Origin: a virus
Taxonomy: Duplodnaviria > Heunggongvirae > Uroviricota > Caudoviricetes
IMG/VR virus record: IMGVR_UViG_2617270955_000010
Length of the DNA stretch: 14,867 nucleotides
Direction: 5' to 3' (one strand)
The notes under the pieces are model-generated. The model worked only from the letters and a program-made list of their open reading frames with translations. It ran no database searches and had not been told where the DNA came from. A program made the position numbers and the translations under genes. Positions 1 to 9,054 of this stretch are shown here, piece after piece; the stretch's first letter is position 1; the number at the start of each line of letters is the position of its first letter.

Positions 1-1542
1 ATGCCAACAGTTCCAATTTCTATGAGAAAACTTAAAGAAATTCTTAGGCTTAAATACGGTGTTGGACTCAGCCATCGACAAATTGGTCGTAGTCTTGCAA
101 TCTCCCCTTCCGTTGTATCCAGATATGCTAATCGGGCGGCTCAACTTGGCATAAAGCAGTGGCCCTTACCTACAGGATGGGATGATACAAAACTAAAACA
201 TGCGTTCCTTCAGACCCAGGTTAAGATGAAGAAGCACTCTCTGCCTGACTGGGCTACAGTACACCGGGAACTGCGTAATAAATGCGTGACGCTGCAGCTA
301 CTCTGGGAAGAATACTGTGAGCGTAATCCAGGCGGTTTTTACAGCTATAACCATTACTGCCGGATGTACCGTGAATGGCTCAAAACCACTTCACCATCAA
401 TGCGTCAGGTACATAAAGCTGGCGAAAAACTTTTCGTTGATTACTGTGGACCTACCGTTGGCGTTACCGACCCTGAGACCGGAGAAATAAGAACTGCTCA
501 GGTCATCGTAGCTGTTCTCGGGGCATCAAGTTACACATGGGCAGAGGCCACCTGGTCTCAGCAGCTTGAAGACTGGGTGATGAGTCATGTTCGCTGCTTC
601 CAGTGGTTGGGTGGCGTTCCTGAACTTGTTGTTCCGGACAATCTGAAAAGCGCCACATCCAGGGCATGTAAGTATGATCCTGACGTTAACCCTACCTACC
701 AGCAGATGCTTGAGCATTATAATGTCGCAGTTTTGCCTGCGCGGCCACGTAAACCGAAAGATAAAGCCAAAGCTGAAGTTGGCGTTCAGGTTGTTGAACG
801 CTGGATCATGGCCCGAATCAGGCATGAGATCTTCTACAGCCTTGCATCGCTTAATCAGCGCATTCGGGAGTTGCTGGAAAGACTGAATAACAAAATAATG
901 CAGAAGTTGGGTTATTCACGTGCAGAACTCTTCATCCAGCTTGATAAACCCGCACTGAAGCCTCTTCCTGAAGCCAGTTACAGTTACACCCTGGTGAAGA
1001 AAGTCAGAGTTCATGCCGATTACCACGTGGAAATCGACAAACATTACTACTCGGTTCCATGTTCGCTGTTAGGCCAGCAACTGGAAGCATGGATCTCCGG
1101 AGAACTGGTAAGACTCTTCAATCAGGGGCAGGAGGTTGCTGTGCACCCGCGCAAGCGTACTTATGGCTACAGTACCCGCAACGAGCACATGCCTGAAGCT
1201 CATCGACAGCATGCCACCTGGACGCCAGAGCGTCTTCTGGAATGGGCGGGGCACATAGGCAGTGAAACTCATAGTTATGTGCTTCATATACTGAACTCTC
1301 GTCCACATCCGGAACAAAGCTATCGCTTCTGCCTTGGACTCCTGAACCTTCATAAAAAATACAGTAAAGCCAGACTTAATGCAGCATGTGCAAGAGCTCT
1401 GAAAACAAAGGTATGGCGTCTGTCAGGTATTAAATCGATCCTGGAAAAAGGTCTGGATAAACAACCTGTTCAGGATCCAAAACCAGATCTGTTATCCACG
1501 ATGGAACACGAAAACGTACGCGGCAGTGAGTATTACCACTGA
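1..1542 (+). CDS. istA: IS21-family transposase IstA (N-terminal HTH plus DDE catalytic domain)
   Basis: 513-aa ORF. The N-terminus MPTVPISMRKLKEILRLKYG...LSHRQIGRSL is typical of IstA helix-turn-helix N-termini. It is followed 11 bp later by an IstB-type ATPase gene. The ATG is at window position 1, so the upstream IR is not visible. Confidence 0.92.
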   Translation: MPTVPISMRKLKEILRLKYGVGLSHRQIGRSLAISPSVVSRYANRAAQLGIKQWPLPTGWDDTKLKHAFLQTQVKMKKHSLPDWATVHRELRNKCVTLQLLWEEYCERNPGGFYSYNHYCRMYREWLKTTSPSMRQVHKAGEKLFVDYCGPTVGVTDPETGEIRTAQVIVAVLGASSYTWAEATWSQQLEDWVMSHVRCFQWLGGVPELVVPDNLKSATSRACKYDPDVNPTYQQMLEHYNVAVLPARPRKPKDKAKAEVGVQVVERWIMARIRHEIFYSLASLNQRIRELLERLNNKIMQKLGYSRAELFIQLDKPALKPLPEASYSYTLVKKVRVHADYHVEIDKHYYSVPCSLLGQQLEAWISGELVRLFNQGQEVAVHPRKRTYGYSTRNEHMPEAHRQHATWTPERLLEWAGHIGSETHSYVLHILNSRPHPEQSYRFCLGLLNLHKKYSKARLNAACARALKTKVWRLSGIKSILEKGLDKQPVQDPKPDLLSTMEHENVRGSEYYH

Positions 1543-1553
1543 TACGGGATCCA

Positions 1554-2303
1554 ATGATGAATCATCTTTACGAACAACTGACCGCACTTAAACTCACCGG
1601 CTTCCGTGATGCGCTTAAAAAGCAACTTGCTCAACCGGGCACATACCAGGAGCTGGGCTTCGAAGAACGCCTGTCATTACTGACAGCAGAAGAACTAACC
1701 TGCCGTGAAAACAGGAAGGCAGAGCGTCTGATCAAACATGCACGGTTCAGACTTAATGCTGAGTTATCAAAGCTGGATTATCGTAACAATAGAGGGCTGG
1801 ACAGGGCCCTCATCCGTTCACTCAGTCAGGGAAACTGGTTAACCCTGAAACAAAATATTTTACTGACCGGGGCCACCGGCAGCGGTAAAACGTTCCTGGC
1901 ATGTGCACTTGGTCATAATGCCTGCCGACAGGGATACAAGGTCTACTATTATCGCCTTAAAGCGCTGATGGAACAGTGCTATCAGGGGCATGCTGATGGA
2001 AGATACAGCAAACTTTTGACCAGGCTGAATAATAGCGATCTGCTGCTTCTGGATGACTGGGGGCTGGAACCTCTCTCATCAGAACAGCGTAGCGACCTGC
2101 TGGAAATAGTGGATCTGATGTACCAACGAGGCTCAATCATCGTAGTGAGCCAGTTGCCGGTGGAAAACTGGTACAAAATGATCGGAGACTCCACACATGC
2201 GGATGCCATCCTAGATCGACTGGTTCATGGCAGTATCAAGATCGAACTTAAAGGAGAATCAATGCGGAAAATACAATCTCCGTTGACCGAAGGAGATCAG
2301 TGA
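1554..2303 (+). CDS. istB: IS21-family helper ATPase IstB (AAA+/DnaC-like)
   Basis: 249 aa. Walker A motif GATGSGKTF and Walker B motif LLLLDDWG. Position immediately downstream of istA. Confidence 0.93.
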   Translation: MMNHLYEQLTALKLTGFRDALKKQLAQPGTYQELGFEERLSLLTAEELTCRENRKAERLIKHARFRLNAELSKLDYRNNRGLDRALIRSLSQGNWLTLKQNILLTGATGSGKTFLACALGHNACRQGYKVYYYRLKALMEQCYQGHADGRYSKLLTRLNNSDLLLLDDWGLEPLSSEQRSDLLEIVDLMYQRGSIIVVSQLPVENWYKMIGDSTHADAILDRLVHGSIKIELKGESMRKIQSPLTEGDQ

Positions 2304-2373
2304 AGGTAATTTAAAAACGGTTCTGTGAAAGTGACACGAACCGATCTCCATCGATGTTACTCACCGATCTCCT

Positions 2374-2463
2374 TCACGGTAATACGCAACCGGCGTCGAT
2401 GCCGTTCAGTTCGGCAACACGGGACAGGTAGGCATTAAATTTAAAGCGGGTTTCCTGGCGCAT
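2374..2463 (-). pseudogene. N: 5' fragment of the P2 major capsid gene N, cut by the IS21-family insertion
   Basis: The reverse strand from the ATG at 2461..2463 reads MRQETRFKFNAYLSRVAELNGIDAG, matching my recollection of the P2 gpN N-terminus. It then diverges (CVLP-stop) as it enters the IS end. It lies 58 bp downstream of the O stop, as in P2. Confidence 0.8.
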
Positions 2464-6381: not shown

Positions 6382-6525
6382 TTACACCCCGTCATCACGC
6401 CCTCACACGCTCACCACCGCACAAAACCCCCCGCAGACACACCAACGCCCCGGCGCACAATCCAAACGCCGTCACGACGCGCTGAGACGCTGAAAAAATA
6501 AAATCAGCACCACCGCCAGCGCGCA

Positions 6526-6544
6526 GTGCTTTCCCCGCCTCGCC
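6526..6544. other. P2-type cos site (19-nt cohesive end)
   Basis: GTGCTTTCCCCGCCTCGCC is the reverse complement of the P2 cohesive end GGCGAGGCGGGGAAAGCAC as I recall it. It lies next to Q, where cos sits in P2. Confidence 0.7.
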
Positions 6545-6661
6545 CGCCCGCTTCGTGGGACGATTTTAATGCAGTTGCCCGCATTAGCTGAATCCGCGCC
6601 AGAACAGACATTATGGATATGTCAATACGAACTTATTGACGTGCAAAATCATGCAATCAAG

Positions 6662-6694
6662 CGCAAAAAAAAACCGCCTTCAAAGAGGCGGTTT
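6662..6694 (-). terminator. Rho-independent terminator of the cargo operon
   Basis: On the minus strand: a 9-bp stem AAACCGCCT / AGGCGGTTT (6671..6679 and 6686..6694) with a 6-nt loop, followed by a run of about 9 U. It lies 16 nt downstream of the kinase-HIRAN stop codon. Confidence 0.75.
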
Positions 6695-6709
6695 ATGTTA
6701 TCCCATTGA

Positions 6710-8353
6710 TTAAGATCTACATTCAACTAAAAGGTACACTAATGGACGTTCTGGCGTCCCATTCTTCTTTGCAACAAAAGCAGATATTTTGTGTTTTGCT
6801 ATTTTTTGCTTGAGTTTTTTACATAACACTTTGTTTATATAACCAAGTTTCCCGCTCTCATGAACAACAGCTATAGCATGTGGATCAACCGGGTTATCCT
6901 CTTCAGGAACAAGCTTGACCAAATCACCGACCATTACTTTCGACAAATCAAGCCCTTCCTGATAACGAGTTCCTGCCACTTCAAAAAGAAGCTCACCTTC
7001 ACTATTAAGAATTTCTGGATCTGGCACCAAACAAAAACCATCGCCAGGTGATTTTGCTCCTGTATATCCTAACAGCGCAAAATCAGAGCCTTCAAATGGA
7101 TGGGGGAGCAAATGTTGAGCCAGATACTCAGCAAAGTCTTTTCTTTTCCGTGGTGGTAAACGCCGAACAAACGGGTCAAGCACGTTGTTCGTATGTTCTT
7201 CACTTTTCAGACTAAATGCGGGATGTCCTGCAAACCCTTTCTCTTGGGCTTTAGCATAATCTTCTGACTGAAAATGGTATGTGAAGACGTAGTTATCCCC
7301 TTGCTGACGATCAATCTGACCAACAACATAACGAGTACCGCCTGTGGGTGGCTGCCATGTAAGAAGCAACCGAGTAGGCTCCATTATTCTGTTTATAGTA
7401 CGCATATTTAGAATCAGTGATAACCTTAGGTATCTACGCCTCAATAAACGAATCGTCCAATCCGCTCGTTCCCTAGTGAACGGCACATCGGAGCTAATTT
7501 CGCAAAGTGAATCTATCTTGTCGACCAGTTCCTGAAAATCAAATTCAAGTCTCCGGGCCAAGTACGCTTTTGACTGCTCATCAAGAGCCAAATCCTGTAT
7601 AGAAGAAATATGACCTAATCGTTCATGCGTGTCTGCCCGATTCTTCCGCAAATGATGACAACCACGCTGTATGTATTCATCTACATTTTGATGGTTCCAT
7701 CCTCTGATCCTCTCTACATACCTTTCATGCCCCAAACTAGTACCATTATCGAAATATGGTGCGAGATATCCCTTCACTTTAGGTGGCGTTATGCCTGGTG
7801 CAGATTCAGGTACAAAAACAAAACCCCAATTCTCTTGGTGTCTATCACTATTACCGATGAGCGCATCAAAAAGCAGCATATCGTAAAGCCATTGGATCCA
7901 GTCTGGAGAGATCAGGCCGCGGATACTAAAAGCCCTACAAATTAAGCGTAGATCAACAAGGTTATGGTGTCTTCCGGAAGAGTCATCAAAATCCGATATC
8001 AACACATGAAAAAAATCAGACGCATGAACAAATAACTGGCTACTTTGATCGTAAAACCACTCAAGCAAAGCTCCATATTCGTATTCACCGTTCTCCATCA
8101 TTCTTCGCGCTGGCAATGCTTTAGGAACAGGAACGCCCATAACATCTCCAACTATATAAGCAACGGTTTCCATCCAGTACTGATCGGGATAAGCATCTCT
8201 TGAGAGTTTAAAAAGATAAGGCCATTCCGGTTTTATCCCCTCAGGAGCATCATTCGGTGACCAAAGCATTTTTTTATCCCTCGCTCCTCGAGGAAAAATG
8301 CCATGCTCATCATCTTTACGCCAACTAGTTACATCTATTAAATTGATATCCAT
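6710..8353 (-). CDS. HipA-family (HipA_C-like) Ser/Thr kinase core fused to a C-terminal HIRAN domain; candidate defence effector/sensor
   Basis: 547 aa. Kinase motifs: P-loop-like GARDKK (aa 23-28), catalytic loop LIGNSDRHQENWGF (D170/H172/N175; HipA DxHxxN motif), and metal-binding APYFDNGTS (D202; compare HipA AP-YD--S). C-terminal ~93 aa (aa ~455-547), ...AGTRYQEGLDLSKVMVGDLVKLVPEEDNPVDPHAIAVVHESGKLGYINKVL..., fits the HIRAN pattern (G-x-x-Y, L-x-x-E-x-x-N-P-x-D-x-x-A-I, G-Y-I). The start is 9 nt after the exonuclease stop (operon). Domain calls are from motif recognition only. Confidence 0.8.
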   Translation of the reverse strand: MDINLIDVTSWRKDDEHGIFPRGARDKKMLWSPNDAPEGIKPEWPYLFKLSRDAYPDQYWMETVAYIVGDVMGVPVPKALPARRMMENGEYEYGALLEWFYDQSSQLFVHASDFFHVLISDFDDSSGRHHNLVDLRLICRAFSIRGLISPDWIQWLYDMLLFDALIGNSDRHQENWGFVFVPESAPGITPPKVKGYLAPYFDNGTSLGHERYVERIRGWNHQNVDEYIQRGCHHLRKNRADTHERLGHISSIQDLALDEQSKAYLARRLEFDFQELVDKIDSLCEISSDVPFTRERADWTIRLLRRRYLRLSLILNMRTINRIMEPTRLLLTWQPPTGGTRYVVGQIDRQQGDNYVFTYHFQSEDYAKAQEKGFAGHPAFSLKSEEHTNNVLDPFVRRLPPRKRKDFAEYLAQHLLPHPFEGSDFALLGYTGAKSPGDGFCLVPDPEILNSEGELLFEVAGTRYQEGLDLSKVMVGDLVKLVPEEDNPVDPHAIAVVHESGKLGYINKVLCKKLKQKIAKHKISAFVAKKNGTPERPLVYLLVECRS

Positions 8354-8362
8354 ATCTTACGG

Positions 8363-8914
8363 TTACCCAGCTAATGCACGGAAAGCAGCACTAACATAAG
8401 CTACCTGAAACTTTGCATCTCGAAGCGCATGATGCGCATCAGTAACATTAATGGAAAAATTTGCCCTTACATCAATATTCTTAAGGCTTTTAGCTAGTTC
8501 AACGATGGTACGCACGTCTCGATCATTTCGAAAACGCCATGGGATATTTTGCGCATGTTTACGGTAAACCGCTGCCAATATAGCGTTATCAAAGCTTGCC
8601 CCATTCCCCCAAACTTGTACGTCATCGTTACTACGACTTCGTACAAATAGAGAAAATTCTTGTAAGGCTTCATGTAAGTCAACAGCAGACGGGTCATTAA
8701 AAACCGCCCTTGCAGAATCGCTTTGTATCATCCACCACTGTAAAGTTTTTGGGTCTACAAAACTATTTTCCAATGCAGATGATAGGGTTATAACTCTATA
8801 AAACTCATCCCCACACTTGCCAGTCAGAGGCTCAAAGAACACAGCGCCGATTGAAATCAAAGGAGCATCCATTGACACACCTAATGTTTCTATATCGAGC
8901 ATTAAATTATTCAT
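8363..8914 (-). CDS. DexA-like DEDDh 3'-5' exonuclease (DnaQ-fold)
   Basis: 183 aa. Exo I motif LDIETLG (D7, E9); Exo II motif WGNGASFDNAIL (D109); Exo III motif DAHHALRDA (H161-x4-D166). The overall pattern resembles phage T4 DexA (IDFETMG, GMSFDFPIL, HDSIHD). Strong SD GGAGG 5 nt upstream of the ATG. Confidence 0.85.
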   Translation of the reverse strand: MNNLMLDIETLGVSMDAPLISIGAVFFEPLTGKCGDEFYRVITLSSALENSFVDPKTLQWWMIQSDSARAVFNDPSAVDLHEALQEFSLFVRSRSNDDVQVWGNGASFDNAILAAVYRKHAQNIPWRFRNDRDVRTIVELAKSLKNIDVRANFSINVTDAHHALRDAKFQVAYVSAAFRALAG

Positions 8915-9054
8915 TTAACCTCCACCCCAGACATAGCTCAGGGAAACGTAACCTATTGAAATAACGAATCAAGTATTTGTCACATTCTATACTAAAACAT
9001 TCGAATTCCAAAACTTCAGCTTTTGCAACCCCTTACAAGTCAATTGATCCATAA

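Follow-up and report, generated by a model that had tools for sequence, protein, structure and literature searches.

HipL kinases, with HipIN as their split form, were defined by Gerdes, Baerentsen and Brodersen (2021, mBio; PMC8262856), and the architecture given there to HipL is the one found at the locus described here. The same study reported that bacterial HIRAN domains keep their DNA-binding motifs, described a Gram-negative subclade of HipL, and found hipL to be monocistronic. It also put forward the hypothesis that HIRAN recognises phage DNA ends and that this turns the kinase on, leading to abortive infection (PMC8262856). Beyond this work, no experimental study of HipL, HipN, hipIN, PDC-M03 or a 'HIRAN-kinase' was found in the literature searched, nor does that literature demonstrate kinase activity, toxicity, DNA binding or a substrate for any HipL or HipI/HipN protein.

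A second line of work concerns the genomic site. The gpA-gpQ interval of P2-like phages is a defence-rich hotspot that also holds non-defence cargo (Rousset et al. 2022, Cell Host Microbe; PMC9122126), and split 'DUF5051 + HipA_C + HIRAN' arrangements are listed in E. coli P2 hotspots in Table S5A of that study. An 'Exonuclease + HipA' cassette from E. coli TA255 was cloned with its native promoter into a pSC101 plasmid as pFR108 (Table S2B); carried by MG1655, it was challenged with eight coliphages, namely lambda, T4, P1, 186cIts, CLB_P2, LF82_P8, AL505_P2 and T7. It appears among the 'additional tested systems' of Table S2B and not among the 'validated' systems of Table S2A; only three other P2 systems were scored active in the study (PMC9122126).

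Nucleases of the DEDD superfamily form the third point of contact. One third of Gram-positive NrnC-like deoxydinucleotide nucleases (diDNases) directly adjoin HipA and HIRAN genes, a link that was left open (NAR 2025; PMC11706625). Bacterial homologues of the T4 exonuclease DexA also exist, and one of them, EcD ('HREX'), digests modified phage DNA and alone protects against T4 (2025 NAR; PMC12153337).

Architecture of the kinase-HIRAN protein

The DNA analysed here (the window, 14,867 nucleotides) contains exactly one open reading frame at 6710..8353, on the minus strand, the plus strand there being broken by many stop codons. The ORF starts with ATG, encodes 547 aa plus stop, corresponds to RefSeq WP_023253881.1 ('HIRAN domain-containing protein') and is assigned here to the HipL-type three-domain Hip kinases. 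A sequence-only reading had placed a single gene at these coordinates, which the ORF fills exactly, and had described its product as a HipA-type kinase with a C-terminal HIRAN domain.

The HipA-type core occupies residues ~1-315 (7409..8353, minus strand). Its Gly-rich, ATP-binding loop GARDKK lies at residues 23-28 (8270..8287, minus strand) and its Mg-binding DNG at residues 202-204 (7742..7750, minus strand), both assigned by motif position and alignment; the catalytic loop DRHQEN at residues 170-175 (7829..7846, minus strand) can be aligned to its counterparts in CtkA and HipA. The order of the three motifs and the numbering of D170 and H172 were given correctly in the sequence-only reading, and its spacing of about 143 aa between GARDKK and DRHQEN agrees with the 142-147 aa counted here, the exact figure depending on the counting convention. 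In an alignment of 34 full-length homologues with identity down to 40%, residues G23, R25, K27, D170, R171, H172, Q173, N175, D202, N203 and G204 are invariant. At the level of sequence, the active site of the kinase encoded at 6710..8353 is demonstrably intact.

Pfam HipA_C matches residues 23-206 with 25.8 bits, which is below the gathering cut-off of 30.5, so the kinase call needed independent support. This is supplied by the PADLOC model PDC-M03A (kinase; 3.8e-31, residues 4-308) and by Foldseek, which matches the kinase model to CtkA, HipA and HipT; the fold is also common to lipid and small-molecule kinases (PI4K, Fam20, CotH). Since the N-terminal 28 residues are conserved in the homologue alignment, the long kinase start is taken as the real one. 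No Ser/Thr stands directly ahead of the Gly-rich loop in that alignment (F-P-R-G is found there), and control by autophosphorylation in the style of HipA or HipT is therefore unlikely. The AF2 model of the whole protein is compact and confident (pLDDT 94.7, pTM 0.93), and this implies that the domains are packed in a fixed arrangement.

Between the core and HIRAN, at residues ~326-445 (7019..7378, minus strand), lies a HipS-like (Couple_hipA) domain, the equivalent of N-subdomain-1 of HipA and of the HipS antitoxin of HipBST, which here follows the kinase instead of preceding it. It was detected by fold comparison only; PDB sequence searches with the single sequence or with a 58-sequence profile gave no match. 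The description of the protein as a 'minimal' kinase devoid of the N-terminal HipA domains thus has to be amended: none precedes the core, but the N-subdomain-1 equivalent is present C-terminally, where it had been overlooked, and the protein is not minimal in this sense.

The HIRAN domain follows at residues ~453-545 (6719..6997, minus strand) and carries the conserved motifs AGTRY (460-464) and DNPVD (486-490). In HLTF, the R-Y and N-x-x-D residues of HIRAN contact the 3' end of DNA. Pfam HIRAN (PF08797) matches residues 453-525 with 41.2 bits, which exceeds the gathering cut-off of 24.7, and both the HIRAN fold and the conserved 3'-end-binding motifs of the family are present. The proposed combination of a HipA-type kinase with a C-terminal HIRAN is accordingly borne out by Pfam HIRAN, the PADLOC models and Foldseek, with HipA_C remaining sub-threshold.

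The second PADLOC model, PDC-M03B (HipS-HIRAN), matches residues 325-525 (1e-30). With PDC-M03A and PDC-M03B in one polypeptide, the ORF is a fusion of the genes of a candidate two-gene system, and the fusion point, M317, aligns with the start of the separate HipS-HIRAN proteins (the HipN start). In this fusion, the kinase carries its putative cis-regulator, the HipS-like domain, in the same chain. In HipA, N-subdomain-1 is part of the active kinase and is not inhibitory; because the equivalent subdomain belongs to an active kinase there, 'HipS-like' need not mean inhibitory.

Cassette anatomy and prophage setting

An exonuclease gene of the same orientation precedes the kinase gene, and 9 nt separate its stop codon from the kinase start. 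In the 178 bp between gpA and the exonuclease gene downstream, a consensus scan finds a sigma-70-like promoter candidate (TTGGAA-16-TAGAAT; 8984..9011, minus strand); it is a weak pattern match in a region that held fewer such sites than shuffled controls. On the other side, a strong intrinsic-terminator-like hairpin with a 9-bp stem and a T-run (6671..6694, minus strand) starts 15 nt after the kinase stop codon. The exonuclease and the kinase are predicted to form one operon. No HipB, HipS or HipN gene adjoins the kinase, whose neighbours are the exonuclease on one side and cos with the portal gene on the other, and no internal repeats were found in the window by BLAST.

The gene order is integrase, C/Cox, B, gpA, cassette, cos, portal gpQ, terminase gpP and scaffold gpO, which places the cassette as cargo in the gpA-cos-gpQ hotspot of an E. 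coli P2-like prophage. The GC content of the cassette is 0.42 compared with 0.53-0.56 in the flanking phage genes, and the cassette looks like a self-contained, horizontally acquired moron. About 130 bp past the terminator comes the 19-nt P2 cos sequence, which can also be seen in the cloned fragments of Rousset et al. 2022 (PMC9122126).

A prophage of strain Ecol_656, located next to cpxP, matches the window over 12.5 kb with 98.4% identity. Bases 1-2388 of the window correspond to ISEc12, an IS21-family element that interrupts the major capsid gene and has probably left this copy of the prophage defective. Both cassette proteins are encoded with 100% amino-acid identity by Escherichia phage 899 and by 'Yersinia phage GMG73'.

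The partner exonuclease

The first gene of the cassette (8363..8914, minus strand) encodes an Rv2179c/DexA-like DEDDh 3'-5' exonuclease of 183 aa (Pfam PF16473, 6.8e-57), in which the DEDDh catalytic residues are present in the motifs DIETLG (7-12), NGASFDN (104-110) and HHALRD (161-166). The protein shows a weak sequence match to PDB entries 8kel and 8ken ('Exodeoxyribonuclease'), which are taken to be DexA and a DexA mutant because the two entries differ exactly at S87A/D90A. Glu82 of the exonuclease aligns to D90 of DexA, a position occupied by Ala in EcD; with Glu82 and not Ala at this diagnostic position, identification of the enzyme with the published EcD/HREX defence nuclease is unsupported.

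Across 5426 complete E. coli genomes searched by megablast, the exonuclease and the kinase occur in exactly the same 61. The exonuclease was also considered as a P2 backbone gene, as 2153 E. coli genomes matched the interval 6400-9000; this was rejected, since the exonuclease alone is found in the 61 genomes of the kinase and the wider matches come from the flanks. Outside E. coli, the exonuclease gene lies directly upstream of the kinase in P2 hotspot settings of Serratia, a Pseudomonadota MAG, Atlantibacter and Klebsiella, and in a chromosomal islet of Proteus mirabilis. Split versions of the kinase with the exonuclease directly upstream occur in Shewanella and in Aeromonas veronii, where the exonuclease and the split genes (three genes in all) sit beside an integrase, away from gpA. 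Three of the contexts in which the two genes adjoin lack gpA. At least 9 lineages and 3 unrelated genomic contexts share this gene order, in which the intergenic distance varies from about -17 to +15 nt. Across 15 loci, the identities of exonuclease and kinase to the window copies rise and fall together (r = 0.98); these loci represent about 9 distinct and phylogenetically non-independent lineages.

The exonuclease neighbour is absent from about 74 of the 80 species-level loci, these being distant split loci, and a more distant fused gene of Aeromonas salmonicida also stands without an adjacent exonuclease. Because most relatives of the kinase do without it, the exonuclease is not regarded as essential to the core mechanism. 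Rv2179c/DexA-like exonucleases, in turn, occur alone in 686 phage records.

Distribution of kinase-HIRAN relatives

Homologues were found in 1471 cluster representatives at E <= 1e-3 and in 217 at E <= 1e-30. The usual form is a kinase of ~310 aa followed by an overlapping gene for a HipS-like and HIRAN protein of ~233 aa, and the fused form is rare, accounting for 3 of the 80 species-level loci and for about 2 among the top 150 cluster representatives. In a rough NJ tree of the kinase cores, the gammaproteobacterial fused forms branch among split HipI-type kinases, a pattern suggestive of repeated fusion or fission.

Unrelated temperate phages carry distant relatives in their lysogeny module, flanked by repressor and integrase; examples come from Aeromonas and from the Clostridioides phage phiCDKH02. 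Other distant split loci adjoin type I R-M, DrmMI/type IIG-like (DISARM-like) or WYL genes. No system-specific recurrent neighbour was detected around ~75 split loci, where only phage backbone genes, integrases, R-M/DISARM-like genes and WYL genes recur. The Proteus islet that carries the cassette has no phage structural genes within 4 kb.

Proposed function and alternatives

Taken as a whole, the locus may encode a single-chain, toxin-antitoxin-like kinase that excludes phages through growth arrest triggered by DNA ends; we infer this reading tentatively and rate it somewhat short of probable. In a resting lysogen, the HipS-like domain would sit against the kinase in the way that HipS sits against HipT, and would restrain it. 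HIRAN would report free 3'-OH ends of ssDNA, or short DNA fragments, that arise when a competing phage replicates or degrades DNA, and the co-expressed exonuclease would trim such 3' ends and so set the activation threshold. Ligand binding would switch the kinase on, and the active kinase might then phosphorylate an essential translation factor, as HipA does GltX and HipT does TrpS, so that growth would stop and the incoming phage would be excluded. An aminoacyl-tRNA synthetase as target is proposed by analogy only. A DNA-end sensor that gates a growth-arresting kinase for abortive infection is plausible, and is not new, being the hypothesis of Gerdes et al. 2021 (PMC8262856).

The evidence in favour of this reading comprises the domain identities, the compact model, the anatomy of the cassette and its location in the defence-rich P2 hotspot. 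To these can be added the co-travel of the exonuclease, the separate DEDD family (NrnC-like diDNases) found beside Gram-positive HipA/HIRAN genes, the relatives located in lysogeny modules or next to R-M, DrmMI-like or WYL genes, the PADLOC entry PDC-M03 and the Gerdes proposal. On the opposite side stands pFR108, the sole published experiment on this cassette, which gave no validated defence against eight coliphages. The non-inhibitory nature of the HipA subdomain, the lack of Ser/Thr before the Gly-rich loop, the many relatives without an exonuclease and the non-defence cargo of the P2 hotspot also weigh against it.

A related proposal, which we regard as improbable, treats the kinase-HIRAN protein and the DEDD exonuclease together as a sensor of DNA breakdown. 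Short 3'-OH deoxyoligonucleotides or ssDNA ends, set free as a phage breaks down or copies DNA, would be the ligands of HIRAN, and the exonuclease would erase the signal and guard against self-activation; the pairing would have arisen twice, with an Rv2179c/DexA-like enzyme in Gammaproteobacteria and with an NrnC-like diDNase in Actinobacteria and Clostridia. If true, this would provide a general 'damage-associated' trigger for a kinase toxin.

The likeliest of the alternatives is that the cassette serves the prophage itself as a growth-arrest or dormancy module, although we consider it unlikely. Such a module would sense 3' ends produced by host DNA damage, or by replication or packaging of the prophage near cos, and would slow translation so as to time induction, stabilise lysogeny or promote persistence. 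The position of the cassette ~130 bp from the P2 cos site would fit, as would the placement of relatives in other phages inside the lysogeny module, by repressor and integrase. HipA-family kinases are classically tied to persistence, the published test with eight phages revealed no defence, and the hotspot holds non-defence cargo too. However, split relatives also occur far from prophages, in chromosomal settings resembling defence islands, beside R-M/DISARM-like genes. The cassette is moreover kept in a prophage inactivated by ISEc12 and in the Proteus islet, which argues for a benefit to the host over a role in the phage life cycle.

It is improbable, in our estimate, that the two genes are independent neighbours brought together by moron stacking, with the exonuclease acting as a stand-alone nuclease defence like EcD ('HREX') and the kinase as a single-gene system. 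The parallel divergence of the two proteins and their constant order across at least 9 lineages and 3 unrelated contexts speak against it, as does the like adjacency of an unrelated DEDD nuclease family in Gram-positives. Further points against it are that the exonuclease has Glu at the DexA D90 position where EcD has Ala, and that no protection against T4 was scored for the cassette. In its favour, a bacterial DexA homologue alone protects against T4 (PMC12153337), most kinase/HIRAN modules have no adjacent exonuclease, Rv2179c/DexA-like exonucleases are found alone in the 686 phage records, and some hotspots stack several systems.

Phosphorylation of a nucleic acid, in which the PI-kinase-like-fold active site would receive a DNA 3'-OH end or a small nucleotide from HIRAN and phosphorylated ends would block extension or ligation, is very improbable, as it has no precedent in the family and the characterised close structural relatives (HipA, HipT and CtkA) are all protein Ser/Thr kinases, even though the HIRAN-kinase arrangement in the model is compact and fixed (pTM 0.93), the fold is common to lipid and small-molecule kinases (PI4K, Fam20, CotH) and the partner enzyme works on 3' ends.

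With respect to phage exclusion by a DNA-end-triggered kinase, the architecture, the mechanistic hypothesis and the exact cassette are already known. All three are in the literature (Gerdes 2021, Rousset 2022), and the finding is for that reason not new. The function of HipL and HipIN has so far been probed with one small phage panel, and the E. coli copy offers a convenient model for the hypothesis of Gerdes: a P2-like phage with a sequenced genome (Escherichia phage 899) encodes it, its active site is intact, its structural model is confident and its partner is conserved. The conserved partnership with the exonuclease is the most useful lead on what HIRAN senses: it is the best handle on the signal because it recurs in three contexts and about 9 lineages and has a counterpart in Gram-positives that involves a different DEDD family. 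The link now involves two different DEDD nuclease families in distant phyla.

Comparison with known systems

The HIRAN domain described here has the fold and the R-Y and N-x-x-D motifs in common with HIRAN of HLTF/Rad5; there the domain is attached to an SNF2 translocase, whereas here it is attached to a kinase, and the aromatic residue equivalent to Y93 of HLTF is variable (Val here). As for HREX/EcD, the DEDDh residues are present in the cassette exonuclease, but the loss of the acidic residue equivalent to D90 (the dimer-only form) is not seen. DS-6/HipAD, a HipA-family defence system from DefensePredictor, was considered as a counterpart and set aside, as its partner is different (DUF3037/DUF1829) and it has no HIRAN.

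HipBST and HipBA have a separate HipB (HTH) and/or HipS gene in the operon, which is not the case here. In contrast to these systems, the kinase has no HipB/HTH partner, the HipS-like part is covalently joined C-terminal of the kinase, a HIRAN domain is added, and there is no Ser/Thr before the Gly-rich loop. The Gram-positive diDNase clusters resemble the present cassette in that a 3'-5' nuclease of the DEDD superfamily lies beside HipA and HIRAN genes on mobile elements; they differ in that the nuclease is an NrnC-like DEDDy dinuclease and the kinase and HIRAN are separate genes, whereas here the nuclease is an Rv2179c/DexA-like DEDDh enzyme and the two are fused.

Both components of PDC-M03, a candidate defence system in PADLOC, are present in the ORF. 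The halves of the protein are homologous to those of hipIN/PDC-M03, with at most 56% identity to stand-alone kinases and at most 75% to stand-alone HipS-HIRAN proteins, and what are two genes in hipIN/PDC-M03 form one fused chain here.

The closest cloned counterpart is pFR108, which comes from the same P2 gpA-gpQ hotspot and has an identical exonuclease and a kinase identical from residue 29 on. The published table starts the kinase at Met29, which would drop the invariant Gly-rich loop, but the cloned DNA holds the full ORF. Beyond the match to pFR108, the window prophage has the ISEc12 insertion in its capsid gene.

By architecture, the protein is a HipL. It has a HipA-homologous core with conserved Gly-rich loop, catalytic and Mg-binding motifs, no N-subdomain-1 ahead of that core (the Gly-rich loop already lies at residues 23-28), a HipS-like domain between kinase and HIRAN, and HIRAN at the C-terminus; both HipL and this locus do without a separate antitoxin gene. 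The difference lies in the gene organisation: hipL was described by Gerdes et al. as monocistronic, whereas here, and in at least 9 related lineages, the kinase gene follows an exonuclease gene at near-zero spacing.

Start codon and fusion junction of the kinase

The records of the HipL-type kinase disagree on its start codon, and the discrepancy concerns residues 1-33 (window 8255-8353). Translation begins at Met29 in the Escherichia phage 899 record and in Table S2B of Rousset et al. (PMC9122126), whereas RefSeq places the start at Met1. A start at Met29 would remove the invariant Gly-rich loop of the kinase. Residues D7, W11, D14, G23, R25 and K27 are conserved in 34 homologues, and this N-terminal conservation supports Met1.

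The fusion junction lies at Met317 (window 7403-7405); in homologue alignments A1 and A3, this is also where the stand-alone HipS-HIRAN proteins have their start codon. In the split loci, the HipS-HIRAN gene overlaps the kinase gene in a different frame; a one-base frame change would turn a fused form into a split one or the reverse, and more than one such event is suggested by the NJ tree.

Genomic context of kinase/HIRAN homologues

Among the distant split loci, the kinase and HipS-HIRAN genes adjoin type I restriction HsdR genes at five (L036, L039, L051, L062 and L079), DrmMI/type IIG-like methylase-nucleases at three (L014, L032 and L045) and WYL-domain regulators at three more (L053, L065 and L066); all of these look like defence-island settings. 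Two further modules belong to unrelated temperate phages and occupy the repressor-integrase interval, the usual place of lysogen-expressed genes: a fused one in Aeromonas salmonicida (locus L094, 4001-5617) and a split one in Clostridioides phage phiCDKH02 (locus L095, 3084-4673). The exonuclease gene is absent at both modules. At the Vibrio harveyi loci L005 and L006, a filamentous-prophage-like gene set with Zot is present, and a split kinase and HIRAN pair lies directly downstream of it.

The exonuclease-kinase cassette was found in P2-like hotspots of Klebsiella (L088 and L089), with a DinI gene upstream in the same hotspot and, on the downstream side, a gene that encodes either a 367-aa PIN_12 protein or a 234-aa DUF4145 protein. 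These hotspots show that cargo is stacked and swapped as modules. In Proteus mirabilis (L092/L093, 3443-5650), the cassette adjoins ahpC/ahpF; a 43-aa Ogr/Delta fragment is the sole phage trace, and phage structural genes were not found within 4 kb. The locus is probably what remains of a P2-like prophage, of which the cargo alone was kept.

Insertion element and cos site in the window

The prophage copy in the window is probably defective, because its P2-type major capsid gene is interrupted by ISEc12 (IS21 family; window 1-2388), which encodes IstA (513 aa) and IstB (249 aa). From position 2389 onward the window is again homologous to intact prophages, and the cargo cassette is intact despite the insertion.

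A single, exact match to GGCGAGGCGGGGAAAGCAC, the 19-nt cohesive-end (cos) sequence of P2, is located on the minus strand at window 6526-6544. It lies about 130 bp past the cassette terminator, and the cassette therefore abuts cos. Cargo abutting cos was described by Rousset et al. for the P2 hotspot, and their cloned fragments also contain GGCGAGGCGGGGAAAGCAC (PMC9122126).
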